Of a stretch of 37,215 nucleotides of DNA, positions 1-36,643 are shown piece by piece. The DNA comes from a virus (lineage: Duplodnaviria; Heunggongvirae; Uroviricota; Caudoviricetes): the IMG/VR virus record IMGVR_UViG_2541047928_000009, positions 1-37,215 of that record; one strand, 5' to 3'. The position numbers and the translations under genes were made by a program. The notes beneath the pieces were generated by a model. It was not told where the DNA came from. It saw only the letters and a program-made list of their open reading frames with translations, and made no database searches. Position 1 is the first letter of the stretch. Each line of letters opens with the position of its first letter.

Positions 1-471
1 CTAATAAAACACCCAGTTTTCTGTTTCTTGGTTGTGTCCAAAGTTATATTCAATATCTGGTGTTGATGTATCAATATTCTTCATCCCATCAACAAGAGTT
101 GATACAACAGCCAAATCTTGTTTGATTCTCATTAAATGGTATTTCTTCCGGCGCAATAAACTCTCAATGGCAAGTTTCTTCGTTGGGAATGCAAAAGATC
201 TTTCTGCATTTTTTGCTACTTTCTTAATTGCATATCTATTTCTCCTTTGTTTCCATTCCTGTAACCACTGATTTGGTGCTGGTTTAAAATTAACAATCCA
301 ATGCGCAGGAACCAACCATGCATAATGCTCTGTCTGATGAAAAGCTATATATTGAAGTGCGAATATTTTTATCCCATCTTCTTCAACTGTCGCCTGGAAT
401 CTCCAGAAAACAGGCATTCCATCATGTTCAGTTTCTGATTCAGGAAAAGGTACGCTCCATGATTTTGTCAT
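1..471 (-). CDS. Hypothetical protein (156 aa) downstream of N in the leftward early operon; function unknown
   Basis: Complete ORF with ATG at 469-471 preceded by a GAGGTGA Shine-Dalgarno on the minus strand; stop at 1-3; AT-rich by eye; no family recognised. Confidence 0.55.
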   Translation of the reverse strand: MTKSWSVPFPESETEHDGMPVFWRFQATVEEDGIKIFALQYIAFHQTEHYAWLVPAHWIVNFKPAPNQWLQEWKQRRNRYAIKKVAKNAERSFAFPTKKLAIESLLRRKKYHLMRIKQDLAVVSTLVDGMKNIDTSTPDIEYNFGHNQETENWVFY

Positions 472-529
472 ATCTCACCTCAAATAAGTGGTTTGCTGCC
501 TAATTTCATTTTCTGGCGACCAACACAAG

Positions 530-802
530 TCATCTCGCCGTCAGTTGTTTTGATTTCCGGTATCCTGCTGCGTAAATGGCTACGTTTGGAAGACAAGTTG
601 AACCTTCATATTTTCTGGTCAACGTTGTCAGAGTTATAACTTCTGCTCTCATTGCTGGTTTGCGCTTGCATTGCAAGACCACTCGTGAAGGGGTTGGCCT
701 GTGTAGCTTGTCGGAGCTGATCGCCTCCTGACTTTGCAGATTTGCGCGACGAGCTCTACGGCGAGAAGCTGCGGTGCCTTTAAATTCTGTTTTTCTGGAC
801 AT
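530..802 (-). CDS. N: N-type transcription antiterminator (90 aa), phage 21 / P22 gene 24-like
   Basis: Arg-rich motif near the N-terminus (GTAASRRRARRANL) and C-terminus ...VAIYAAGYRKSKQLTAR resembling the P22 gene 24 protein end as I recall it; GGGAGGA RBS upstream of the internal ATG at 800-802; sits left of the nutL candidate. Confidence 0.7.
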   Translation of the reverse strand: MSRKTEFKGTAASRRRARRANLQSQEAISSDKLHRPTPSRVVLQCKRKPAMRAEVITLTTLTRKYEGSTCLPNVAIYAAGYRKSKQLTAR

Positions 803-900
803 GGATTCCTCCCGAATAAACTTTGGCGATGCAATCTCGAAGCTCCTCCTGAGACGGTTGCTTCGGCATTGCATCCCACAGCTTATGTGGTTGGGTGATC

Positions 901-946
901 TGGCTTTTCAGCCACGTAGTCGAGAGTCGACGTTGTTTAAAGAGCC
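901..946 (-). promoter_or_regulatory. Candidate nutL: boxA-like GCTCTTTAA (minus strand, plus 937-945) followed about 22 nt later by a boxB-like hairpin UGGCU-GAAA-AGCCA (plus 901-914)
   Basis: Read on the minus strand; same architecture and spacing as the nutR candidate at 3582-3627; located between the presumed pL and N. Confidence 0.5.
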
Positions 947-959
947 TGCCAGTCTGTTC

Positions 960-1200
960 CATTTGGCTTCCAGCGTCCTGCTGACGGTTAAATAGTACGA
1001 TATGTACTTTACAAGATCAATACAATTTGTTGTAAGTTGGCGTGGTTTTTTATAACGCTTTGTATTTAATAGTGTTGTTTTTTAGCGTGGATGTATTGCC
1101 TCGGCGATGTAAGGAGAGATCAGAATTGCGTGGTTTAGTGGGTTGCATCTATTTATTTTTCAATAAATATAATTGGTTATGTGTTTTTAGGTGGGCGAAC
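960..1200 (-). promoter_or_regulatory. Putative pL / OL operator-promoter region (AT-rich non-coding stretch upstream of nutL and N)
   Basis: Position relative to N and cI as in lambda; contains GTACTTT...AATACAA-type motifs that echo the OR region; exact operators not resolved. Confidence 0.3.
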
Positions 1201-1206
1201 GTGAGG

Positions 1207-1233
1207 CAAAGAAAACCCGGCGCTGAGGCCGGG
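1207..1233 (-). terminator. Rho-independent terminator closing the cI / orf185 / orf250 leftward transcript
   Basis: Hairpin CCCGGC-(6 nt loop)-GCCGGG at 1216-1233 followed on the minus strand by a TTTTCTTTG run; starts 5 nt past the stop of the 250 aa ORF. Confidence 0.6.
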
Positions 1234-1238
1234 TTGTA

Positions 1239-1991
1239 TTATGCTGCAAGTCTCTTAACCCAAGTCTCTCTTTTGGAGAATGGTAGAACTTGGCTTGATT
1301 CATGGAAGAGTAAGGAGAGTTGTTGCATTTGATCACCAATTGCTTCGCTGTCTATAACAACAAATCTGTTGTTATACTCCTCACTTGAAGCTTTAAGATC
1401 AATTAGTTTCCCAAGCAATGAGTAAGCACTATTCCAGCTTCCTCCGTGTTTCACGCTTGATGTAAAAACGTATTTAGGTATGTCGGTTTTTATTGTTACA
1501 GGGACGGTAATTTGATGTCCACTCAAGCCATATACGTTTTCACGAAGAGAAAGTGCGTCTCTAAGCTCTGTGTGATATAGATAATCAATAACCATACTTT
1601 CAAACTTTTCAGCTTGAACTGGCTGATACCAGTCTAACGACAAAGTTGATGCGAGTATACCAGCTCTAATTATGTTCGATGTAATCGCACCGACATCCTT
1701 TTCTGTTGCCCAAGCAATGATTTCTCCTCGAGCATTGAGTTCTGCGCCTTCTTTAAGCAGTAATTGTCGTATCTCATCAAGTCGTTTTTTGGTAAGCGAG
1801 ATCCCTCTTGCCTCCATATTCATTAAGGCATCGCATCTGTCACTAACTAAATACCTACCATTGACTTCACGGATAAAGGCACCGACATGCTCTCCATCAT
1901 CACAGTAAGTGAATGGACTGATAATTCTCAAGGTCTTGCCTATTGGATGGCATTCGAAACCTAGTTGTGAGATCACTGTTGAGCACATCAT
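1239..1991 (-). CDS. Hypothetical protein (250 aa), distal gene of a two-gene cassette in the rexAB-equivalent position; candidate superinfection-exclusion/defence component
   Basis: ATG at 1989-1991 overlaps the upstream stop (ATGA coupling); AT-rich by eye; ends just before the intrinsic terminator; no obvious transmembrane segment or recognised motif. Confidence 0.6.
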   Translation of the reverse strand: MMCSTVISQLGFECHPIGKTLRIISPFTYCDDGEHVGAFIREVNGRYLVSDRCDALMNMEARGISLTKKRLDEIRQLLLKEGAELNARGEIIAWATEKDVGAITSNIIRAGILASTLSLDWYQPVQAEKFESMVIDYLYHTELRDALSLRENVYGLSGHQITVPVTIKTDIPKYVFTSSVKHGGSWNSAYSLLGKLIDLKASSEEYNNRFVVIDSEAIGDQMQQLSLLFHESSQVLPFSKRETWVKRLAA

Positions 1992-2545
1992 ATTCCAAAC
2001 CCCATTTGCCCCGACTCATCTTCAAGCGGTAAAGGTATTCTCCCAGAGTAAGTTATGTTCAGATGTTTACAGAAGTAATTCCAATACCCTACCAGGTCAT
2101 CTGGGTTTATGTCATCTTCGATTGGAAACGCTATTCTATCACTATAGTATCCAGCTTCTTCATAGTATACATGGTAGTGAGCACCGTAAATGATATCTTG
2201 GTACTTCGGATGATCGACCTTGTAACTATTCGTGTGTTTGTCAAAGTGATAGGTATCTACCGCGAAAACCCTCTTGTTATGATAGAAAGCAATAATATTT
2301 ATTTTAGGGTAAGAAATCGGGTCATCAGGTTCTGAATCCTGATCTGGTTTCCATTTCAGTTCAAACTTTAGCCCTTGTATAGGTATACAATCCTCATCCA
2401 AGGGGATGATATGGGCTTGTAGCCACATATCAGAGCGACTTGGTTTCTGTTTCCATTTAACGCCAGAAAAGTTAACTATTTTTTTACAATAAAGTACTTT
2501 ATCAACTTCTACTTGGCTTGGCTGATAATCATCTATTTTTGCCAA
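1988..2545 (-). CDS. Hypothetical protein (185 aa, or about 146 aa from the internal ATG), proximal gene of the two-gene cassette downstream of cI
   Basis: ORF begins 40 bp after the cI stop; the first codon at 2543-2545 is TTG so the true start is uncertain; aromatic/acidic-rich, no obvious transmembrane segment; not RexA/RexB-like by length or composition. Confidence 0.5.
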   Translation of the reverse strand: MAKIDDYQPSQVEVDKVLYCKKIVNFSGVKWKQKPSRSDMWLQAHIIPLDEDCIPIQGLKFELKWKPDQDSEPDDPISYPKINIIAFYHNKRVFAVDTYHFDKHTNSYKVDHPKYQDIIYGAHYHVYYEEAGYYSDRIAFPIEDDINPDDLVGYWNYFCKHLNITYSGRIPLPLEDESGQMGFGI

Positions 2546-2584
2546 TGTTTACCGCCCTGTAAATTGTAGATAAAAGTGGTTTCA

Positions 2585-3244
2585 TCACCCAAACGTCTCT
2601 TCAGGCCATTGGCTGGCGATAACTTTCCCCACAACGGAACAACTCTCATTGCATGGGATCATTGGGTATTGTGGGTTTAGTGGCTGTAGAAACACCTGAC
2701 CGCTATCCCTGATCAGTTTCTTGAAGGTAAATTCATCACCACCAAGTCTGGCTATGCAGAAATCGCCGGGCTCAACAGCTTGCTCAGGGTCAACCAGAAT
2801 TAACATCCCGTCAGGAAAGCTGGGTTTGGAACCTGTTGGTGCGGTCATTGAGTTACCTTCAACCTCAAGCCAGAATGCAGAGTCACTGGCTTTTTTGGTT
2901 GTGCTTACCAATCTCTCCGCATCGCCTTTGGTAAAGGTTCTGAGTTCTGGAGAGAACATCCCAGCCTGAACATGAGAAAAAACAGGGTACTCATATTGTT
3001 TTTTAACTGGGGCCGATGAGTATTCGCCAACAGGTGAAAATGTCCCGTCGTGGTTGAATGATATGTTATCAATACCAAGGTATTTAAACACCACACCAAT
3101 ATCACTAAGAGATGGATGACGAGATCCGCGCAACCAGTGTCCAATCCCACCCTGCGTCATACCTAGCTCTTCGGCTAACTTCTCTTGAGTTATGCCGAGC
3201 TCTTTCATTCTGGATCTAGCCAGTTCATACCATTTCATTTTCAT
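2585..3244 (-). CDS. cI: CI prophage repressor (HTH plus LexA/S24-like autocleavage domain); the C-terminal domain reads as lambda cI, the N-terminal DNA-binding domain does not
   Basis: C-terminal ~140 aa ([26 protein letters not shown]...[12 protein letters not shown]) matches lambda cI as I recall it; N-terminus [11 protein letters not shown]...[14 protein letters not shown] is a different HTH; start taken at the ATG at 3242-3244, alternative ATG at 3236-3238. Confidence 0.85.
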
Positions 3245-3355
3245 GTCCTTATTATTACGCTCTGTACTGGAACCATCCATGCACAATGTGTATTTTTACT
3301 TGTATTCGCAAAGTACATATTGTATTTTTTTATTCGTGTTTACTATGGAGGGCAT
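3245..3355. promoter_or_regulatory. Divergent immunity control region (OR operators, pRM and pR) between cI and cro
   Basis: 111 bp AT-rich intergenic region between divergent repressor genes; contains near-palindromic TACTTGTATTCGCAAAGTAC and TGTATTTTT repeats; individual operators not resolved. Confidence 0.5.
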
Positions 3356-3571
3356 ATGAGCAACCTACGAAAATATCGAGAGTCACTGAATATCTCTCAA
3401 ACAACACTTGCTAAGGCAGTTGGATGCACACAGGGAGCTATCGGACATTGGGAATCTGGTCGTCGCTTCCCAGACCTTAAAACATGCCGTGCTCTTGTTG
3501 CGTGCCTAAACAAGTTAGGCGCAAAAGTCAGTCTTGATGACGTGTTCCCGCCGGAACACAAAGCCGCTTAA
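3356..3571 (+). CDS. cro: Cro-like HTH repressor (71 aa)
   Basis: ATG at 3356 with a GGAGGG RBS; HTH with recognition-helix motif TQGAIGHW closely resembling the cI motif TQGGIGHW; divergent from cI. Confidence 0.75.
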   Translation: MSNLRKYRESLNISQTTLAKAVGCTQGAIGHWESGRRFPDLKTCRALVACLNKLGAKVSLDDVFPPEHKAA

Positions 3572-3581
3572 TAAGCGGATC

Positions 3582-3627
3582 CGCTCTTTGTAACAACGGA
3601 CATTCGTCCTACGTCGCTGAAAAGCGA
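3582..3627 (+). promoter_or_regulatory. Candidate nutR: boxA-like CGCTCTTTG (3582-3590) and boxB-like hairpin UCGCU-GAAA-AGCGA (3614-3627)
   Basis: Immediately downstream of cro; boxA consensus-like; same hairpin form and spacing as the nutL candidate. Confidence 0.55.
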
Positions 3628-3712
3628 GTTCCAAGATATCTGACCAACTAAGGCCATATGCGTTTCCACGCATACCTTTCAACTAACTATTCACTATTGG
3701 AAATCTTAAGAA

Positions 3713-4012
3713 ATGGAAAGAACAAGTTACAGCAAACTATCACAGCGTGACGTTGATCGCGCAGAAACAGATTTACTTATCAATCTGTCAGCTATTACCC
3801 AGCGCGGTCTGGCAAAGATGATTGGCTGTCATGAATCGAAGATAAGCAGAACGGACTGGAGATTTATTGCTTCGGTCTTGTGTGCTTTCGGAATGGCATC
3901 AGACATCAGTCCGATTAGCAGGGCTTTTAAGTATGCGCTTGATGGACTCACCAATAAAAAACGCCCGGTGTGCAAGACCGAGCGTTCTGAACAAATCCAG
4001 ATGGAGTTCTGA
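3713..4012 (+). CDS. cII: CII transcriptional activator
   Basis: C-terminus [18 protein letters not shown] matches lambda cII as I recall it; the N-terminal part is divergent. Confidence 0.8.
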
Positions 4013-4034
4013 GGGAATTACTGGATCAATCCAC
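3954..4034 (-). ncRNA. Candidate oop-like antisense RNA overlapping the 3' end of cII
   Basis: Minus-strand hairpin CGCUCGG...CCGGGCG followed by UUUUUUAUU (plus 3954-3984), in the position of the lambda oop terminator; possible -10 CATAAT on the minus strand near plus 4042-4047; TSS not determined. Confidence 0.35.
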
Positions 4035-4044
4035 AGGAGTAATT

Positions 4045-4191
4045 ATGACAAAACAACTCAGTCCTTACCAGGACAAAATTCACAAACACATACTACGTGA
4101 TCGCTTCCTGTCCAGCTTCAAGCAGTCTGGTCGATTCCGGGCTGAGTTGGAAAAAGTGAAGCTGATGCAGAAGGAGAAAGGTCATGAGTAA
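4045..4191 (+). CDS. Small hypothetical ORF (48 aa) between cII and O
   Basis: ATG at 4045 with a CAGGAGT RBS; its stop overlaps the O start; too short for the supplied ORF track; may not be expressed. Confidence 0.3.
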
Positions 4192-5044
4192 TCTTGCAAC
4201 CGTAACACATTTAAGGCCTTCACAACGGCCTGTGGAGCGTCGTGTGGCAGAAGTTGAAGATGGTTATACCCGTCTTGCAAATGCCCTGTATGAAGAGCTT
4301 ATCGGCGCAGATTTAACAAAAAATCAGAGTAAGGTTGCCCACGCCATATGCCGTAAAACATACGGATACGGTAAAAAGATGGATCGCATCTCTGATAGTC
4401 AGTTAGCTCAAATTACCAGGCTGCCAAGACAGAAGGTAAACAAGGCCAAGAATGAGCTTATCGCGATGAAGGTAATCCTTCGCGAAGGCCAGCAAATCGG
4501 GCCTAACAAGAACATCGAGGAATGGCAAATCGAAGGGTGTCACTACTCTGGTGATAATGTCACTGCATTGGTGACAAAAAGTGTCACCAAAACGGTGACA
4601 GCGCTGTCACCAAAACAGGGACACACAAAAGAAACTATTACAAAAGAAAAAAGAAATAATAAAAACACTATGTCCGAAAGTGTTCGGACGGAGTGTGAAA
4701 AATCATCTGACCGTCACGAAGAAACCGACAAGGCATTCGAGGAAATATTCTGGTGTGCAGGCATGCGGAAAGCCGGGAAAAAAAACGCAGCTTCGGCATT
4801 CAGAACACAGTTCAGGGAATGGCGTAAAACTACCAGGGGTACGGCAAGCGAGTTTGCCACGATGCTGGCAGAAGACATCGCATGCAGGAATGGTAAGCAG
4901 TTCGGATTCGACAGGTTGTTACCATCGAGCTACCTGAACGGTCAGCGCTGGAACGACGAGAAGCCAGAAACTATTCAACCACAATCCAAACCATCATCCG
5001 CAATCACCGTATCGAAAACTGGCTACGTGTTTTTCGACAGGTGA
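4184..5044 (+). CDS. O: Replication initiation protein O (lambda O-like N-terminal iteron-binding domain)
   Basis: N-terminal region [14 protein letters not shown]...[33 protein letters not shown] resembles lambda O; ori iterons lie inside the gene. Confidence 0.8.
4536..4670. repeat. Origin of replication: three or four inverted-repeat iterons (GGTGACA...TGTCACC type) followed by an AT-rich segment, embedded in the O gene
   Basis: Directly visible: TGTCAC at 4538, GGTGATAATGTCAC at about 4550, GGTGACAAAAAGTGTCACC at about 4570-4588, GGTGACAGCGCTGTCACC at about 4594-4611, then an AT-rich stretch 4625-4670; same architecture as lambda ori. Confidence 0.7.
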
Positions 5045-5151
5045 ACCATGAAATCAAAAATCAAATCGCTACTGGTCGCTGGTTATAACCACGGCTGGTT
5101 AAGTATTTCGTTTGTCGATTTCTGGTTTAAAAATCTCAATCTGAGGGAATC

Positions 5152-7032
5152 ATGAGGCCAAGTGAACTTAGCGACCTGCTTTGGGCGCAGGTTGACAGTG
5201 TGGCTCCGCACCTGTTGCCAAATGGCAAGAAAGAGGGGCATGAGTGGGTTGCCGGTAACATCAACGGTGACAAGGGAAACAGCCTTAAGGTCAACCTTAG
5301 CGGCAAGAAAAAATGGGCTGATTTCGCTGAGGGAGACGGCGGTGACATGCTTGATTTGTGGATGGCATGTCGTGGAATTAACCTGCATCAGGCTATGCAG
5401 GAAGCGAAAGCATTTCTCGGTATCAAGGATGACGATCACCATTTCGATGCCAGACGTGAGAAGAAATTCTCCAGACCTGATCGCAAGAAAATCGCCCGCT
5501 ACGTTACCAGAACAGAATCCCATCTTGAGTACCTGCAATCGCGTGGCATATCGCCAGAAATCGTAAAGCGCTACGAGGTTGTCAGCGGCAAGGTGTGGAA
5601 TGGAGAGCGGGAACTGGATGCTCTGGTGATTCCGTACAAACGCGATGGTGAGTTGTTGCAGGTCAAGCGAATCAGCACTGAGCGCCCGGACGGGAAGAAA
5701 GTCATTATGGCAGAAGGTGATTGCGAACCTTGCCTGTTCGGATGGCAGGCTCTGGACGCTGGCGTGAGGGCGGTTGTGCTTTGCGAAGGCGAAATTGATT
5801 GTATGAGCTATGCGCAATACGGCATCTCGGCGTTATCCGTGCCGTTTGGTGGCGGGAAAGGCGCTAAGCAACAGTGGATTGAGTTTGAGTATCACAACCT
5901 CGACAGGTTTGAGGAAATATTCATCTCGATGGACGTTGATGATGTTGGTCGTGAAGCCGCAAGGGAAATCGCAAGCCGACTCGGTGAACATCGTTGCCGT
6001 CTTGTTACTCTGCCGTACAAAGACATCAACGAATGCCTGATGAACGGTGTTACCGAGGATGAAATCTGGCAGTACATCGGCACGGCATCCTACTTCGATC
6101 CTGAAGAACTCTACAGCGCGCGAGAGTTTTACCAGGACACTATCAACGCTTTCTACGGCAAGCAGCAGTATCTGTTTAATCCACCGTGGGAATCTCTGGC
6201 AGATAAATTCCAGTTCCGTGAGGCAGAGTTGACGCTGGTCAATGGGGTGAACGGTCACGGAAAAACGGAGGTTGTCGGGCATATGGCACTTGAGGCAATG
6301 CGTCAGGGTGTGAAGACGTGCATCGCGTCACTTGAGCTGAAGCCTGGTATTCTCCTTAAGCGCCTTACCCGTCAGGCGACGTGCTGCAAGATGCCGCCAG
6401 TGCTGGAAATTGACTCTGCATTTAAATTTTATGACGAAAGACTTTGGGTGTTTGGCCTGACCGGAACGGCGAAAGCCGACAGGCTGATCGAAATATTCGA
6501 CTACGCTCGCCGCCGATACGGGATCCAGTTATTCATCATCGACAGCCTGATGAAATGTGGCATAGGCGACGATGACTATAACGGGCAGAAGGCGTTTGTT
6601 GACTCGATTTGCGACTTCAAAAACAAAACAAACTCCCACGTCATTCTCGTTACTCACTCGCGAAAAGGAGACAGCGAAGAAAAACCAACCGGGAAAATGG
6701 ACGTAAAAGGCTCTGGAGCGATAACAGACCTGACAGACAACCTTTTCATCATCTGGCGTAACAAGGCTCGCGAGAGAGCGTTACAGAGAGTTCAGAGTGG
6801 TGAAAAGATGTCAGAGAAGGACGAACAGCTACTGGCGTCTCCTGCATCTGTTTTGATGCTTGAAAAACAACGTAACGGCGAAGGTTGGGAAGGTGGTGTC
6901 CCGTTGTTCCTTGACGAGCAATCGCACCAGTTCCTGCAACTTGAATCAGGATCGCCATATAGCTACATCGCCAATATGCCGAAATCGGAATATGACGAGG
7001 CGTGGCGACAGGAAAACGTGACGGAGTATTAA
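5152..7032 (+). CDS. Bifunctional DNA primase/helicase (Toprim primase domain plus RecA-fold DnaB/RepA-like ATPase)
   Basis: Toprim motifs VLCEGEIDCMS and ISMDVDDVG; Walker A GVNGHGKT and Walker B LFIIDSL; occupies the position of lambda P. Confidence 0.75.
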   Translation: MRPSELSDLLWAQVDSVAPHLLPNGKKEGHEWVAGNINGDKGNSLKVNLSGKKKWADFAEGDGGDMLDLWMACRGINLHQAMQEAKAFLGIKDDDHHFDARREKKFSRPDRKKIARYVTRTESHLEYLQSRGISPEIVKRYEVVSGKVWNGERELDALVIPYKRDGELLQVKRISTERPDGKKVIMAEGDCEPCLFGWQALDAGVRAVVLCEGEIDCMSYAQYGISALSVPFGGGKGAKQQWIEFEYHNLDRFEEIFISMDVDDVGREAAREIASRLGEHRCRLVTLPYKDINECLMNGVTEDEIWQYIGTASYFDPEELYSAREFYQDTINAFYGKQQYLFNPPWESLADKFQFREAELTLVNGVNGHGKTEVVGHMALEAMRQGVKTCIASLELKPGILLKRLTRQATCCKMPPVLEIDSAFKFYDERLWVFGLTGTAKADRLIEIFDYARRRYGIQLFIIDSLMKCGIGDDDYNGQKAFVDSICDFKNKTNSHVILVTHSRKGDSEEKPTGKMDVKGSGAITDLTDNLFIIWRNKARERALQRVQSGEKMSEKDEQLLASPASVLMLEKQRNGEGWEGGVPLFLDEQSHQFLQLESGSPYSYIANMPKSEYDEAWRQENVTEY

Positions 7033-7061
7033 ATGGCCATCTACATCACTGAGCTAATAAC

Positions 7062-7093
7062 AGGCCTGCTGGTAATCGCAGGCCTTTTTATTT
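7062..7093 (+). terminator. Rho-independent terminator after the replication genes (tR2-equivalent position)
   Basis: Hairpin AGGCCTGC-(8 nt)-GCAGGCCT followed by TTTTTATTT. Confidence 0.65.
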
Positions 7094-7121
7094 GGGGGAG
7101 AGTAATTGGAGGATTTAAGAA

Positions 7122-7337
7122 ATGAGTACGATAGCTGAGCTTGTCAGGGCTAATTTTCGTGAAGAGTTGGCGCGTTGGTATCGGTATCGTTCATCGTCCA
7201 GTTTGCCGCTTGATGAGTTGTATGAGCATTCACCTGCCGCACGACGCTATCCGCGTGACCGTGTTCTTCGGCGGTTGTTCAGACTCAACAATGAGTTTCA
7301 GCGCAACAGAATAATCCGGAGTCTGGATTTAAAGTGA
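7122..7337 (+). CDS. Hypothetical nin-region protein (71 aa)
   Basis: ORF with a GGAGG-like RBS; no family recognised. Confidence 0.45.
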   Translation: MSTIAELVRANFREELARWYRYRSSSSLPLDELYEHSPAARRYPRDRVLRRLFRLNNEFQRNRIIRSLDLK

Positions 7338-7347
7338 AGGAGTGAGC

Positions 7348-7530
7348 ATGAGCGAGCAAATATTCAGAGAGATTAAGCCACGGTTTTATCGCAAGGTAAG
7401 GGTAGTTTATCAGGACGAAAACAAGACCTGTGCATACGCCATTCATAATGGTCGGTGGTCAGTGTTCGACACCAAAAACTTCGAGAAGAACTTCGAGAGG
7501 ATTAAGGGTGATGAGGAAACTAACATTTGA
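7348..7530 (+). CDS. Hypothetical nin-region protein (60 aa)
   Basis: ATG at 7348 with an AAGGAG RBS; end overlaps the ninB start. Confidence 0.45.
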   Translation: MSEQIFREIKPRFYRKVRVVYQDENKTCAYAIHNGRWSVFDTKNFEKNFERIKGDEETNI

Positions 7531-7951
7531 ACTAAGAAGCCCCATCCATCAGCAGAACGCCATTCAAGCTATCCAGCAAATCCTTCCAGACCCAACCAAA
7601 CCAATCGTAGTAAGCATTCAGGAACGCAACCGCAGCTTAGACCAGAATCGAAAGCTTTGGGCTTGCCTTGGTGACGTCTCTCGTCAGGTTGAATGGCATG
7701 GGCGCTGGCTGGATGCAGAAAGCTGGAAGTGTGTGTTTACCGCAGCATTAAAGCAGCAGGACGTTGTTCCTAACCTTGCCGGGAATGGCTTTGTGGTAAT
7801 AGGCCAGTCAACCAGCAGGATGCGTGTAAGCGAATTTGCGGAGCTATTAGAGCTTATACAGGCATTCGGTACAGAGCGTGGCGTTAAGTGGTCAGACGAA
7901 GCGCGACTGGCTCTCGAATGGAAAGCGCGATGGGGAGACAGGGCGGCATGA
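7511..7951 (+). CDS. ninB: NinB (Orf) recombination mediator
   Basis: [68 protein letters not shown]... matches lambda NinB as I recall it. Confidence 0.85.
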
Positions 7952-8130
7952 GACGACAGCGACGAAGTTTCACCGACATAATCTGCGAAAACTGCAAATA
8001 CCTTCCAACGAAACGCTCCAGAAATAAACCCAAGCCAATCCCAAAAGAATCTGACGTAAAAACCTTCAATTACACGGCTCACCTGTGGGATATCCGGTGG
8101 CTAAGACATCGTGCGAGGAAAACAAGGTGA
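7948..8130 (+). CDS. NinD/NinE-family small zinc-ribbon-like protein (60 aa)
   Basis: [60 protein letters not shown] resembles a conserved lambdoid nin-region protein; start overlaps the ninB stop; I am unsure whether it is NinD or NinE. Confidence 0.65.
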
Positions 8131-8240
8131 TTGACGTGATGATTTATTCGGGGCTATATTCCTCACACGCCAGCAAAATCTGGCGTCGGGATTGGAACCC
8201 CGATAATCATCATGGCGCATACCGCGTTAGCGGTTTTTTT
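8131..8240 (+). ncRNA. Candidate small structured RNA or tRNA-sized cloverleaf-like element: sigma70-like promoter, nested hairpins, intrinsic terminator
   Basis: TTGACG-(17-18 bp)-TATATT at 8131-8160; hairpins CGCCAG/CTGGCG (8168-8185) and TCGGG/CCCGA (8186-8203); 8 bp long-range pairing TGATGATT (8137-8144) with AATCATCA (8205-8212); terminator ACCGC-GTTA-GCGGT-TTTTTTT at 8221-8240; the supplied ORF 8085..8324 runs through this terminator. Confidence 0.35.
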
Positions 8241-8405
8241 ATGCGTAAAGCACTGCTACACCCAAATTATGGTGGGGCGTGCGGGGGAGTCGTAAGACTC
8301 GCCGGATTCCATGGTGACCGGTAGTTCCAACCCTGTACGTCTCACCACCCAATGATTGGAACCAGACGGTGGTGAGTATCCTTAACCTTTAAGGGAACTA
8401 TCACC

Positions 8406-8597
8406 ATGACAAACTTACCCCATGACTATTACGTCAATCTCGTAAAGATCCTTCTCAAGAAAGCCTCATACGCCGATAAACTCCGCCTGGCTGAAATAAT
8501 CGAGCGCGAAGCTATGCGCATCGCCAGCAACGATAACGCTGTTTCTGACGCAAAAATCTCCCTCGTAACCAAAGTAGTTATGGGAGGTGCAAAATGA
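8406..8597 (+). CDS. Hypothetical nin-region protein (63 aa)
   Basis: ORF with ATG preceded by an AAGGGAA RBS-like sequence; stop overlaps the next gene start. Confidence 0.45.
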
Positions 8598-9280
8598 AAA
8601 CGCTTCCGACCGTTAACACCCTACAGCCTATCCTGCATAATCAGATTCCAGTAATCACAACTGAGCTACTCGCCCGCCTTTATGGAACAGAAGCAATCCG
8701 TATACAGCAAAATCACCATGAAAATAAAACTCGGTTCATTGAGGGGAAGCACTTCTTTAAAGCTGTTGGTGATGAACTCAAAAATTTGCGACTAGTTTTA
8801 AACGAGTCACAAAATGAGGTACAAATTTCCCCCAAAACTCGCTCTCTCATCCTCTGGACAGAACGCGGGGCTGCACGTCACGCTAAAATGCTTGAAACTA
8901 ACCAAGCGTGGGATGTGTTCGAACGGCTGGAAGACTGCTATTTCAGCCAGTGCGAGAAAAATACTGGCAAACAAGAGAAGAAGCCCAACGGGCTTTCCGC
9001 AAAAGAAACAGACAGCCTTGTATGGCTGTGGGATTATGCCAACCGCTCACAGGCATTGTTCCGTGAGTTGTATCCCGCATTAAAACTGATTCAGTCTGGC
9101 TATTCCGGCATATGCCACGACTACGGCTATGAGTTCTCGTATATCATCGGGAGGGCGAGGGGCGTTTTAATTAATCACACGCGGGATATAGATATTTATG
9201 AGCCTGACGGGCCGACGAACCTTCTGGCATGGGAAAGGCTTAAGAACAAAGAGTTGCCGCCTTCACTGCATCGCTACTGA
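8594..9280 (+). CDS. ORF6N/KilA-N-like domain protein (putative antirepressor-like regulator)
   Basis: N-terminal segment [46 protein letters not shown]...[30 protein letters not shown] resembles ORF6N-type domains; assignment from memory only. Confidence 0.5.
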
Positions 9281-9348
9281 CAATTGACAACTTAACAAAC
9301 CCAGCTTCGGCTGGGTTTTTTATTGCTGAATTTTCAATATGAGAGGAC

Positions 9349-10077
9349 ATGACAATGAATGAGCTGATAAATAGCAACGTCATCAAAATGACAAGCATTG
9401 AAATCGCTGAGTTGGTGGGAAGCCAACACGGTAATGTCAGAATATCAATAGAACGTCTGGCAAAGCGTGGGGTGATTCAACTTCCTCCAATGCAAAAAGT
9501 TGAAAATAAACAAACAATTAGCCCTAACAAATTCACAAGCGTGTATATATTCGAAGGCGAACAAGGTAAGCGAGACAGCATTATTGTCGTCGCTCAGTTG
9601 TCGCCGGAATTCACCGCTCGTCTTGTTGACCGTTGGCGAGAACTCGAAGGGGCAACCGCGAAAATACCACAAACCTTTTCTGAGGCATTGCGCCTTGCGG
9701 CCGACCTTGAAGACCAGAAGGCTGAACTGGAGAAACAGCTTGCTCTCGCAGCACCTAAAGTTGAGTTTGCCGATCGCGTTGGCGAGGCCAGCGGAATTTT
9801 GATTGGAAACTTTGCAAAGGTTGTTGGAATTGGTCCAAACAAACTGTTTGCGTGGATGCGCGATCACAAAATCCTTATTGCTTCAGGTTCCCGGCGCAAT
9901 GTGCCAATGCAGGAATATATGGATCGCGGCTATTTCACAGTGAAAGAAACAGCGGTCAACACAAATCACGGAATACAGATATCGTTCACCACAAAAATCA
10001 CCGGGCGTGGTCAACAGTGGCTGACCAGAAAGCTGCTCGATAACGGAATGCTGAAAGTAACAGGGGAGGCTGCTTAA
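9349..10077 (+). CDS. Phage antirepressor, Rha-like N-terminal domain plus KilAC/ANT-like C-terminal domain
   Basis: N-terminal SIEIAELVGSQHGNVRISIERLAKRGVI (Rha-like); C-terminal FADRVGEASGILIGNFAKVVGIGPNKLFAWMRDHKILIA (KilAC-like). Confidence 0.65.
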   Translation: MTMNELINSNVIKMTSIEIAELVGSQHGNVRISIERLAKRGVIQLPPMQKVENKQTISPNKFTSVYIFEGEQGKRDSIIVVAQLSPEFTARLVDRWRELEGATAKIPQTFSEALRLAADLEDQKAELEKQLALAAPKVEFADRVGEASGILIGNFAKVVGIGPNKLFAWMRDHKILIASGSRRNVPMQEYMDRGYFTVKETAVNTNHGIQISFTTKITGRGQQWLTRKLLDNGMLKVTGEAA

Positions 10078-34582: not shown

Positions 34583-36643
34583 ATGACAGTAAAAATTTCT
34601 GGCGTGCTTAAAGATGGCACAGGAAAACCAGTACAGAACTGCACCATTGTGCTGAAGGCCAGACGGACCAGCAGCACGGTGGTGGTGAACACGGTGGCCT
34701 CTGAAAATCCGGATGAAGCCGGGCGTTACAGCATGGATGTTGAGCATGGTCAGTACAGCGTCACCCTGCTGGTTGAAGGTTTTCCACCTTCACATGCCGG
34801 GACCATTACCGTCTATGAAGGTTCCAGACCAGGTACGCTGAATGATTTTCTCGGTGCCATGACGGAGGATGATGCCCGTCCGGAGGCACTGCGCCGTTTT
34901 GAGCTGATGGTGAATGAAGTGGCACGTCATGCCGGAGCGTCATCACAGAGTGCAGCGGCGGCAAAGAAATCCGAAACGGCAGCAGCCTCATCGAAGAATG
35001 CGGCGAAAACCTCAGAAACGAATGCAGCTAACAGCGCACAGGCGGCAGCGGCCTCGCAGACTGCATCGGCAAACTCCGCGACAGCAGCCAAAAAATCAGA
35101 AACCAGCGCGAAAAATAGCGAGACAGCCACAAAGGCCAGCGAAAAAAACGCAAAATCCAGCCAGACGGCAGCGAAAACCAGTGAGACGAATGCCAAAGAC
35201 AGTGAAGCCAACGCAAAGGTGAGCGAAACAGCGGCGGCGAACTCGGCGAAAGCATCGGCAGCAAGCCAGACGGCAGCAAAAGCAAGTGAAGATGCTGCCA
35301 GAGAATACGCAAACCAGACAGCAGAGCCGTACAGATATGTTTTACAGCCGCTGCCGGATGTGTGGATACCCTTTAATGATTCGCTGGATATGATTACGGG
35401 CTATTCTCCGGGTTATAAAAAAGTGAAGATTGGTGATAATGTGGTTCAGGTTGCCAGTGATAAACAGGTTAATTTCAGTCGCGCATCAACGGCAACATAT
35501 ATCAACAAATCTGGCGAACTGAAAACGGCGGAAATTAATGAGCCACGATTTGAAAAAGAAGGTTTATTGATTGAAGGTCAGCGAACCAACTACATGTTGA
35601 ATTCAGCAACTCCAGCTTCTTGGGGTAAATCTGCAAATATGAATGTCGCTGAGGTTGGAACTGATAGTTTTGGTTTTACTTATGGAAAGTTTGTTTGTAA
35701 TGAATCATTAATTGGGCAAAGTACAACCCTTAATATGGCAGTAGTTTCAACCTCGGGGGCTGTCGATGTATCAGGCGATAATAAGTGTGTGACGACATCG
35801 TGCAGATTTAAAACGGATTTGGAACTCCTGTTAAGGATCAGGTTTGAAGCCTTCGATGGCAGCGCTTCATCTAATCTTGGATATGCCATTGTTAATACGC
35901 GGTCTTTATTGGTTGAAATCACCGGTGTAGCTGCCGACAGGCTCACCGCACGAGTTAACAAAGATGAAGCTACGGGCTGGATTTTTGTAGAGGCAACGAT
36001 TCAAGCAAGTAAAGAAACTTACATAACCTCTGCAATACAATACGCACCAAAATCTGGTGGCGTCGTTGAATCTGGTGACTATATTTATCTGGCCACTCCT
36101 CAGGTTGAGGATGGTTCGTGTGTATCATCTTTTATTATATCAGGAACGACGGCGGCGACGCGCGCAAGCGATATGGTTACAGTTCCGATTAAGAATAATC
36201 TTTATAATCTTCCTTTTACGGTTCTTTGTGAGGTACATAAGAACTGGTATAAAACGCCAAATGCAGCGCCACGTGTTTTTGATACCGGCGGTCATCAAAC
36301 CGGAGCGGCTATTATTCTTGGCTTCGGATCTTCGGCAGATGGGCCAGACGGATTTCCTTATTGCGATATTGGTGGATCAAATAGGCGTGTTAACGAAAAC
36401 GCATCGTTGAAAAAAATGGTTATGGGGATGCGTGTAAAGTCAGATCAGTCTACATGTGCAGTAAGTAACGGGCGTATATCCAGCGAAACAAAAACCACAT
36501 GGGAATATATCCGGAGTACAGCAACCATTCGCATTGGTGGACAAACTACAGCAGGATTACGCCATTTATTTGGGCATGTGAGGAATTTTCGTCTCTGGCA
36601 TAAAGAGCTAACAGATGCGCAGCTTGGGGAGGTTGTGGAGTGA
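34583..36643 (+). CDS. stf: Side tail fibre protein (Stf-like N-terminus, Ala/Ser/Thr-rich repeat region, non-lambda C-terminal distal domain)
   Basis: N-terminus MTVKISGVLKDGTGKPVQNCTIVLKARR...GFPPSHAGTITVYEGSRPGTLNDFLGAMTEDDARPEALRRFELMVNEVAR closely matches lambda Stf; the C-terminal about 430 aa are unrelated to lambda Stf as recalled and look AT-richer. Confidence 0.85.
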   Translation: MTVKISGVLKDGTGKPVQNCTIVLKARRTSSTVVVNTVASENPDEAGRYSMDVEHGQYSVTLLVEGFPPSHAGTITVYEGSRPGTLNDFLGAMTEDDARPEALRRFELMVNEVARHAGASSQSAAAAKKSETAAASSKNAAKTSETNAANSAQAAAASQTASANSATAAKKSETSAKNSETATKASEKNAKSSQTAAKTSETNAKDSEANAKVSETAAANSAKASAASQTAAKASEDAAREYANQTAEPYRYVLQPLPDVWIPFNDSLDMITGYSPGYKKVKIGDNVVQVASDKQVNFSRASTATYINKSGELKTAEINEPRFEKEGLLIEGQRTNYMLNSATPASWGKSANMNVAEVGTDSFGFTYGKFVCNESLIGQSTTLNMAVVSTSGAVDVSGDNKCVTTSCRFKTDLELLLRIRFEAFDGSASSNLGYAIVNTRSLLVEITGVAADRLTARVNKDEATGWIFVEATIQASKETYITSAIQYAPKSGGVVESGDYIYLATPQVEDGSCVSSFIISGTTAATRASDMVTVPIKNNLYNLPFTVLCEVHKNWYKTPNAAPRVFDTGGHQTGAAIILGFGSSADGPDGFPYCDIGGSNRRVNENASLKKMVMGMRVKSDQSTCAVSNGRISSETKTTWEYIRSTATIRIGGQTTAGLRHLFGHVRNFRLWHKELTDAQLGEVVE
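34943..35302 (+). repeat. Tandem in-frame repeats (about 14-aa / 42-bp period, AAK-SET-like) inside the tail fibre gene
   Basis: Roughly eight degenerate repeats of the type AAKKSETAAASSKN / AAKTSETNAANSAQ; generates spurious Arg-rich and Ala-rich ORFs in other frames (34914..35222 +, 34927..35211 -). Confidence 0.7.

Follow-up and report, generated by a model that had tools for sequence, protein, structure and literature searches.

A survey of Stx phages places a cI repressor of the type studied here in "Clade I", next to that of lambda (PMC8951638). In the Salmonella phage epsilon34, the repressor tail is about 80% identical to that of lambda and the head about 50% identical to those of L, VT2-Sa and Ni12, and the same phage carries a divergent Cro, an operator consensus WTACRAWWTGTAT and a CII conserved at its C-terminus only (PMC2629481). 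The repressor of BAA2326 (O104:H4), about 61% identical to lambda cI, is likewise lambda-like with a different head; its cooperative binding was shown, and it uses a leaderless PRM transcript (PMC5977221). As early as 1999, the VT2-Sakai record (AP000363) described its cI as "similar to CI repressor of bacteriophage lambda" and its cro as "similar to C2 of bacteriophage L".

We analyzed a region within a 37,215-nucleotide stretch of phage DNA (hereafter the window), which runs from the early-left end of a lambda-like prophage through its replication, nin, lysis, head and tail genes. This region is an ordinary lysis-lysogeny switch of a lambda-like prophage, of the immunity type of VT2-Sakai, the Stx1 phage and a Nissle prophage, and it has already been described. 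Very probably, it is a lambdoid switch of known type that combines a non-lambda repressor head, OR and Cro with a lambda-type repressor tail as a result of modular exchange.

Distribution and layout of the region

Over 1.8 kb, the region shows 99.5% identity with phages ev017, ev207 and PhiR57_1/PhiR63_2; identity is 96.8% with the Stx1-converting phage (AP005153), Stx2 II (AP005154) and the Stx2a phages of the PA series, and 96.5% with VT2-Sakai. Both proteins, cI and Cro, have exact (100%) amino-acid counterparts in the Stx1-converting phage and Stx2 II, the cI DNA of the Stx1 phage differing from ours at synonymous sites only, and VT2-Sakai carries the same cI allele save for an amber codon at codon 31. 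AP005153 annotates six 17-bp operators as "putative" for this immunity region; four of them (the three OR sites and OL1) are unchanged in the window, and the other two (OL2 and OL3) are near-identical, with a few substitutions. The segment that spans the cI head, OR and cro (2996-3571) was found in 776 of 5,426 complete E. coli genomes (14%), with 100% identity in the type strain and in prophage 3 of Nissle 1917. A published Nissle clone presented as a "phage repressor" is in fact cII. Altogether, the region is a textbook case of modular exchange in lambdoid phages that has been in the databases since 1999, and the analysis establishes the layout of a switch that is very common among E. coli prophages, those of Stx phages and of the probiotic Nissle 1917 included.

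The genes and sites around the switch are as follows.

530-802 or 530-874, minus strand: N antiterminator (Pfam N_peptide, E=6e-32)
902-913 (boxB) and 933-946 (boxA), minus strand: nutL, located by motif
1114-1235, minus strand: lambda-homologous patch (90% to lambda 35708-35826), downstream of the rex slot, with a tImm-like terminator at 1214-1235
1239-2545, minus strand: two-gene cargo cassette (185 aa and 250 aa) at the rexAB position downstream of cI
2585-3244, minus strand: cI, 219 aa from MKMKWY, stop codon at 2585-2587, first conserved start ATG at 3244
3356-3571, plus strand: cro, a 71-aa HTH_3 protein of the 434/P22-C2 type fold family, with the helix-3 motif TQGAIGHW
3582-3626, plus strand: putative nutR-like site, read from the sequence, with boxA CGCTCTTTGTAACAA at 3582-3596 and a boxB hairpin CGCTGAAAAGCG at 3615-3626
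3713-4012, plus strand: cII, of the phage-21/HK022 type, lambda-like in its last 22 codons only
4184-5044: Phage_rep_O (Pfam)

The nutR-like site is laid out like nutL, and its stem differs from that of nutL by a compensatory change. Because lambda-homologous DNA flanks the cargo genes on both sides (1114-1235 and cI), they sit precisely in the rexAB slot. This pair lies outside the switch and is given here for context; it is a candidate defense pair, and a literature search on DUF1828 in phage defense returned nothing specific.

Repressor and cII junctions

Compared with lambda cI (J02459, locus L001), the repressor falls into two parts.

2585-2995, minus strand: cI tail (codons 84-219 and stop), lambda-type, comprising the linker with the Ala-Gly self-cleavage site and the S24 peptidase/oligomerization domain
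2996-3244, minus strand: cI head (codons 1-83), a non-lambda HTH_3 DNA-binding domain with the helix-3 motif TQGGIGHW

Residues 84-219 correspond to residues 101-236 of lambda cI and agree with them at 135 of 136 positions, the sole change being W129L (lambda numbering) in the linker region, and solved lambda structures match this tail. The tail is recognized as Peptidase_S24 (PF00717, E=1e-28), and its VQA|GMF, GNSM (serine) and FKKL (lysine) motifs align identically to lambda cI, so that the protein has the domain, Ala-Gly cleavage site, serine nucleophile and lysine general base of the LexA-like S24 family. From the near-identity of the tails, this repressor would be expected to undergo RecA-stimulated self-cleavage leading to induction, and the W129L change could alter the kinetics of cleavage. 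The head, by comparison, is only about 21% identical to the lambda head over its first 83 residues and belongs to the HTH_3 family (E=1.9e-10, 41 bits against a gathering score of 23). Database annotations start cI 12 codons further upstream, at 3280, and homologues do not conserve this extension. ATG 3244 or 3238 is probably the true start, with some uncertainty among the three positions; this suggests that the usual annotation is 12 codons too long.

The transition between the two parts is abrupt. At the DNA level, positions 2584-2995 are 93.4% identical to lambda and nothing aligns upstream of them, and when the two genes are compared codon by codon, the break falls exactly between codons 83 and 84 (nucleotides 2996/2995), where 13 of 13 upstream codons differ from lambda and the first 10 downstream are identical. 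It lies in the inter-domain linker, ten residues ahead of the Ala-Gly cleavage site.

Such a pattern might also arise without recombination, if cI and cII were related to the lambda genes by vertical descent, diversifying selection for new immunity had driven rapid change in their DNA-binding parts, and constraint had frozen the tail and the end of cII that oop overlaps. We measured head and tail identity separately across 120 cI homologues and found that the head is indeed nearly always less conserved than the tail. However, unequal rates do not account for a codon-sharp break at which synonymous sites jump from scrambled to about 93% nucleotide identity, nor for the way in which heads and tails are combined. 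Lambda-type tails (at least 79% identity) are joined to at least four head classes among these homologues: that of the window, those of g341c and Enterobacter (about 50% identical to the window's head), that of lambda (about 20%) and a further Salmonella class beginning MKTMHEIIGERIK (20-28%). Conversely, heads that are 70-78% identical to the window's are joined to tails only 57-62% identical (P0028, P0031), and the tails of relatives in other genera that carry the same head are 79-85% identical to that of the window, compared with 99% for the lambda tail. Because head and tail similarities are incongruent in this way, recombination in the cI linker is required, and we consider purely vertical descent improbable; the incongruence does not tell which phage is "the hybrid".

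The near-identity of the tail protein to that of lambda could conversely be taken as the mark of a recent chimera, formed in this particular prophage by recombination with a phage of lambda immunity. Yet the tail differs from lambda by 27 nucleotides in 408, of which 26 are synonymous and one is non-synonymous, showing that the exchange is old and that the tail is under strong purifying selection. The identical cI protein is also present in hundreds of genomes and in phages whose sequences date back as far as 1999, a distribution that effectively refutes a recent origin and leaves it next to no credence. The exchange by recombination that we favor is thus an old one: the junctions relative to lambda are real and were inherited with a widespread allele, and they are not events of this genome. 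As for the unit that is exchanged, phage Dewey shares exactly positions 2591-3571 (cI through the cro stop codon, 93%) and the OL region with the window and has a different cII; since it shares just those parts, cI-OR-cro travels as a unit with OL.

A second junction relative to lambda lies within cII, at about codon 77/78. The protein is a clear Phage_CII member (PF05269, E=6e-34). Its identity to lambda CII is 40% overall, falling to 29% in the first 77 residues and rising to 86% in the last 22. Against phage 21 cII it is 90% identical and contiguous over the whole protein, and HK022 and VT2-Sakai match its first 77 residues at 89-93% identity. Two further elements overlap the gene.

3722-3735, minus strand: predicted cII-binding site of a pRE-like promoter, TTGCTGTAACTTGT (TTGC-N6-TTGT), inside cII codons 4-8
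3947-4052, minus strand: lambda-homologous patch with an oop-like antisense unit and the pO region, overlapping the 3' end of cII

The patch is 91.5% identical to lambda oop/pO and covers the last 22 codons of cII, the intergenic region and the first 8 nucleotides of lambda O; it is the sole lambda DNA homology at cII. A terminator-like hairpin lies within it on the minus strand (3958-3988). The oop family of Rfam gave no match, either with an E-value threshold on positions 1-8000 or with the gathering threshold on the whole window, and the oop-like assignment, put forward from lambda homology and the terminator-like site, is to be read as putative. For the predicted cII-binding site the argument is positional: it occupies the place of the ttgyN6ttgy cII site annotated in phage 21, and the pattern by itself is not significant, TTGC-N6-TTGC being found 38 times in the window against 50 expected. 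The 3' end of cII would be doubly constrained by the overlapping antisense unit, a point in favor of the vertical reading weighed above. Constraint sits poorly, however, with the behavior of a segment of about 60 bp at this very end (3967-4026): the identity of VT2-Sakai and the Stx1 phage to the window is 90-100% on its two flanks and drops to 72% inside it, the segment being lambda/21-like in the window and HK022-like in those two phages. Recombination, again, is the reading that we retain.

An earlier note on this DNA had described a repressor whose last ~140 residues read as lambda cI and whose first ~80 form a different HTH, together with a cII that is lambda-like at its C-terminus and divergent in its N-terminal part. 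All of this is borne out, with exact lengths of 136 and 83 residues for the two parts of the repressor. Its proposal of recombination junctions inside cI and cII is supported by the incongruent similarities, provided that the junctions are understood relative to lambda. The novelty that it implied does not stand, since the whole of cI is a contiguous homologue, identical in amino-acid sequence, of a repressor already known from Stx phages, a result of the kind that the note had itself named as refuting, and cII is of the phage 21 type.

Cro, operators and immunity specificity

The cro gene is preceded by a ribosome-binding site, GGAGGG, at 3347-3352. A longer open reading frame in a mechanically produced list (3185-3571) was rejected as cro, being merely an upstream extension of the real gene at 3356-3571. 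Cro is an HTH_3 protein (E=4e-12, 46.4 bits against a cut-off of 23) whose Pfam matches comprise HTH_3-type families only, the lambda-Cro family being absent, and BLASTP returned no alignment to lambda Cro at E<=100. It is instead 35% identical to the cI head of the same region (E=7e-11), which identifies the two as paralogous HTH_3 domains. In the 434 paradigm, the repressor head and Cro are both HTH_3 domains that act on the same operators.

A close relative of Cro in the PDB is 28tn_A (E=4.5e-17). In the alignment to structure chains of the P22 C2 N-terminal domain, TQGAIGHW of Cro stands opposite SNVAISQW, a stretch that we take to be the recognition helix; the 434 equivalent of this motif is TQQSIEQL. 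TQGGIGHW of cI, placed through the cI/Cro alignment, falls in the same columns as TQGAIGHW of Cro. We compared the helix-3 motifs of cI and Cro from the window and g341c with those of four more family members, for each of which we recovered the adjacent, divergently transcribed cro; the set covers six immunity types.

Window: cI TQGGIGHW, Cro TQGAIGHW
L013: cI TQGGVGHW, Cro TQGAIGHW
g341c: cI TKGAVSHW, Cro TRGAVCHY
L012 (Providencia-type homologue): cI SKGAVGHW, Cro TKGNISHY
L011 (Enterobacter): cI TQGALSHW, Cro TQSSICHY
L014: cI TNGAMGHW, Cro TPSSIGHY

Position 2 tracks between cI and Cro in five of the six pairs, a partial co-variation, and TAC...GTA-type palindromes are present in all the intergenic regions compared. 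All family members share the framework T/S-x-G/S-x-[IVLM]-x-H-[WY]; because part of the motif is thus family scaffold, the identity of cI and Cro at seven of eight positions is not all about specificity.

Six 17-bp, partly palindromic sites with the consensus nARTAC-N5-GTAYTn are the putative operators of this pair of proteins.

993-1009: OL1, putative operator, TAGTACGATATGTACTT
1018-1034: OL2, putative operator, CAATACAATTTGTTGTA
1051-1067: OL3, putative operator, TATAACGCTTTGTATTT
3253-3269: OR3, putative operator, TATTACGCTCTGTACTG, overlapping the presumed PRM -10 region
3279-3295: OR2, putative operator, ATGCACAATGTGTATTT
3311-3327: OR1, putative operator, AAGTACATATTGTATTT, overlapping the presumed PR -10 (TATTGT, 3318-3323)

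As a test independent of annotation, we built a half-site matrix from the OR sites only and scored all 17-mers of the 37-kb window. The OL sites ranked 1st, 2nd and 4th among the non-training 17-mers, and a matrix trained on OL gave the same ranks for the OR sites, with OR3 in 2nd place. When the 37 kb were searched for ARTAC-N5-GTAYT with at most one mismatch, the only matches were OL1, OR3 and OR1. The spacing of the OR sites (26 and 32 bp) is mirrored by that of the OL sites (25 and 33 bp), and in phage Dewey the operators, including the OR2 position, are kept and the spacers between them vary. Promoter hexamers read by eye are TTTACT-17-TATTGT for PR, TTGATC-17-TACTAT for PL and a PRM -10 of TAATAA just upstream of the cI ATG. 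Since they were read by eye and a consensus promoter scan flagged none of PR, PL and PRM (5 sites found, 7.3 expected), we have low confidence in these possible assignments; a leaderless cI mRNA is likewise a prediction. The operators footprinted for the BAA2326 repressor (PMC5977221) are absent from the window, so that this repressor represents a different immunity type.

We then considered whether immunity overlaps with that of lambda, in the sense that lambda cI would act on these operators or the window's cI on those of lambda. Lambda cI does shift oligonucleotides carrying VT2-Sakai operators, with apparent KD values of 3.7-6.4 uM, in the only EMSA that we found for these operators, which used lambda cI and not the cognate protein (PMC10742460). 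These affinities, however, are in the micromolar range and 10-30 times weaker than those for lambda OR1/OL1 in the same assay (PMC10742460). Nor does the window have the attributes of lambda immunity: the lambda operator consensus (TATCACCGCCAGTGGTA) has no match in it at up to three mismatches, the head is about 21% identical to that of lambda, and Cro is unrelated to lambda Cro. Overlap with lambda is therefore, in our judgment, highly improbable.

The earlier note had described a non-lambda Cro and nearly identical presumed recognition helices in cI and Cro, as expected for proteins that share operators, and both points agree with the family assignments, the shared alignment columns and the six-site set. 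[quoted passage not shown] Its phrase "hybrid immunity specificity", in contrast, is a misnomer, since head, Cro and the full set of six operators belong to a single non-lambda type and the parts that resemble lambda have no role in setting which operator is recognized.

Proposed working of the switch and comparison with known systems

We propose that cI is a two-module LexA-like repressor whose HTH_3 head (residues 1-83) would read the six putative operators. By analogy with lambda and 434, the lambda-type tail would allow cI dimers to bind cooperatively at OR1 and OR2. The dimers would keep PR and PL repressed, stimulate PRM when at OR2 and turn it off when at OR3; looping between OL and OR, with sites about 2.26 kb apart, is plausible. 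RecA* would trigger cleavage at the Ala-Gly site as in lambda, after which Cro, as a paralogue of the cI head, would occupy the same operators for which it competes, in the manner of 434 and not with the lambda Cro fold. CII may drive pRE, and the oop antisense RNA may damp cII. In this reading, the three lambda-like patches, located at the cI tail, oop and tImm, behave as conserved segments through which homologous recombination has exchanged the specificity cassette (head, OR and cro) and the rex-slot cargo among lambdoid phages.

The dimerization and oligomerization domain, which several head classes have in common, matches its lambda cI counterpart at 99% identity, so that repressors of heteroimmune prophages in one cell might form mixed dimers or octamers through it. 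We regard this as rather unlikely; if true, mixed oligomers would weaken mutual repression or couple induction, and would thereby create cross-talk between heteroimmune prophages.

Among known systems, the Stx1 (AP005153), Stx2 II (AP005154) and VT2-Sakai (AP000363) phages, ev017, ev207, PhiR57_1 and Nissle prophage 3 have the same order N-OL-(cargo)-cI-OR-cro-cII as the window; in the Stx1, Stx2 II and VT2-Sakai phages, the rex-slot cargo and the replication genes differ. Lambda shares the linker and C-terminal domain and an arrangement of three OR and three OL operators about 2.3 kb apart, and it differs in the DNA-binding head, the operator sequence, the fold family of Cro and cII (40%). 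The repressor and Cro of 434 and P22 resemble those of the window in that both are HTH_3 domains sharing helix-3 residues and operators, although identity is low (31-33% to 434; E of about 0.01 to P22 C2, which was compared through PDB chains only). The 434 tail is related to the window's at the family level only (36%), and the operator half-site and spacing of 434 and P22 differ. The C1-Cro-C2 region of epsilon34/g341c has the same architecture, with a head about 52-54% identical, a lambda-type tail (about 80-85% identity, varying with the alignment), a Cro 46% identical, a related operator core (ATACA-N3-TGTAT) and a cII conserved at its C-terminus only. Because its helix-3 residues (TKGAVSHW in the repressor, TRGAVCHY in Cro) and its outer operator bases differ from those of the window, epsilon34/g341c probably represents a separate immunity.

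The reading frame and relatives of the repressor and Cro

In database annotations, the repressor cI is a protein of 231 aa that begins 12 codons further upstream, the extension corresponding to 3245-3280 (minus strand). This extension overlaps OR3, a putative operator between cI and cro, together with PRM, the presumed cI promoter. Among more distant homologues it is unrelated in both sequence and length, and in those that do retain it, the retained stretch (STERNN) is operator sequence. The conserved start of cI reads MKM(K/N)W, and AAGGA lies 7 nt ahead of the ATG at 3238.

At cI codon 31, which encodes the recognition-helix Gln, the record of phage VT2-Sakai (AP000363) shows TAG instead of CAG (MT*GGIGHW). 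The VT2-Sakai record annotates a truncated cI of 510 bp because of this TAG. It may be a sequencing error, or it may be a genuine amber mutation that a homoimmune prophage in the same host complements. For Cro (3356-3571), a solved structure of a close relative is available: residues 1-69 match PDB 28tn_A, an 82-aa "lambda repressor-like protein" (E=4.5e-17).

The cII gene and the Nissle 1917 clone

VT2-Sakai and the Stx1-converting phage (AP005153) depart from the window in a stretch of ~60 bp (3967-4026) at the 3' end of cII, where they are HK022-like while the window is lambda/phage-21-like. Identity drops to 72% in this stretch, against 90-100% in both flanks. This is a small gene-conversion tract, and it coincides with the oop-like antisense unit that overlaps the end of cII.

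The same locus has been cloned from E. coli Nissle 1917, where a "phage repressor (pr)" gene, EcN_1294, placed in pUC19 reduced the plating of lambda and stx phage >200-fold (PMC5987069). The pr qPCR primers map to 3910-3968 of the window and the cloning primers to 3667-4039. The clone therefore consists of the cII gene and the oop-like antisense terminator; EcN_1294 is not cI.

Gene cassettes downstream of cI and in the nin region

Two genes occupy the position downstream of cI held by rexAB in lambda, with lambda-homologous DNA on either side of the cassette:

1239-1991, minus strand, DUF1828 gene, 250 aa
1988-2545, minus strand, gene with a weak DUF6978 match, 185 aa

The stop and start codons of the two genes overlap. 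The 250-aa product matches PDC-M24B (E=4.7e-10) and the 185-aa product PDC-M24A (E=4.8e-4), which form a candidate defence pair in PADLOC. The cassette, which Nissle 1917 and PhiR57_1 carry as well, is a candidate for a defence system encoded by the prophage.

The nin region matches two Rfam families, isrK (72 bits) and C4 antisense RNA (84 bits), followed by three genes:

8167-8352, plus strand, isrK and C4 antisense RNA region (Rfam)
8406-8597, 63-aa ORF
8594-9280, antirepressor-type protein, ORF6N and P22_AR_C
9349-10077, antirepressor-type protein, Rha and ANT/KilAC

Together, these genes and RNAs (8167-10077) look like an immI-like antirepressor module under antisense control, which could inactivate cI independently of RecA.

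Candidate antitermination sites and replication genes

Candidate nut sites share a layout of boxA, a variable hairpin, TAC and a boxB hairpin whose loop is GAAAA:

902-946, minus strand, nutL candidate
3582-3626, plus strand, nutR candidate

The change between their two boxB stems is compensatory (GGC...GCC versus CGC...GCG).

A short ORF and the replication genes follow cII:

4045-4191, plus strand, 48-aa ORF matching phrog_1913
4184-7032, plus strand, O-like initiator, then a 626-aa Toprim/DnaB-like primase-helicase

The 48-aa ORF starts with ATGACAAA, as lambda O does, and the "tail protein" label of phrog_1913 is probably wrong. Whereas lambda carries the P gene, the window has the primase-helicase in its place.
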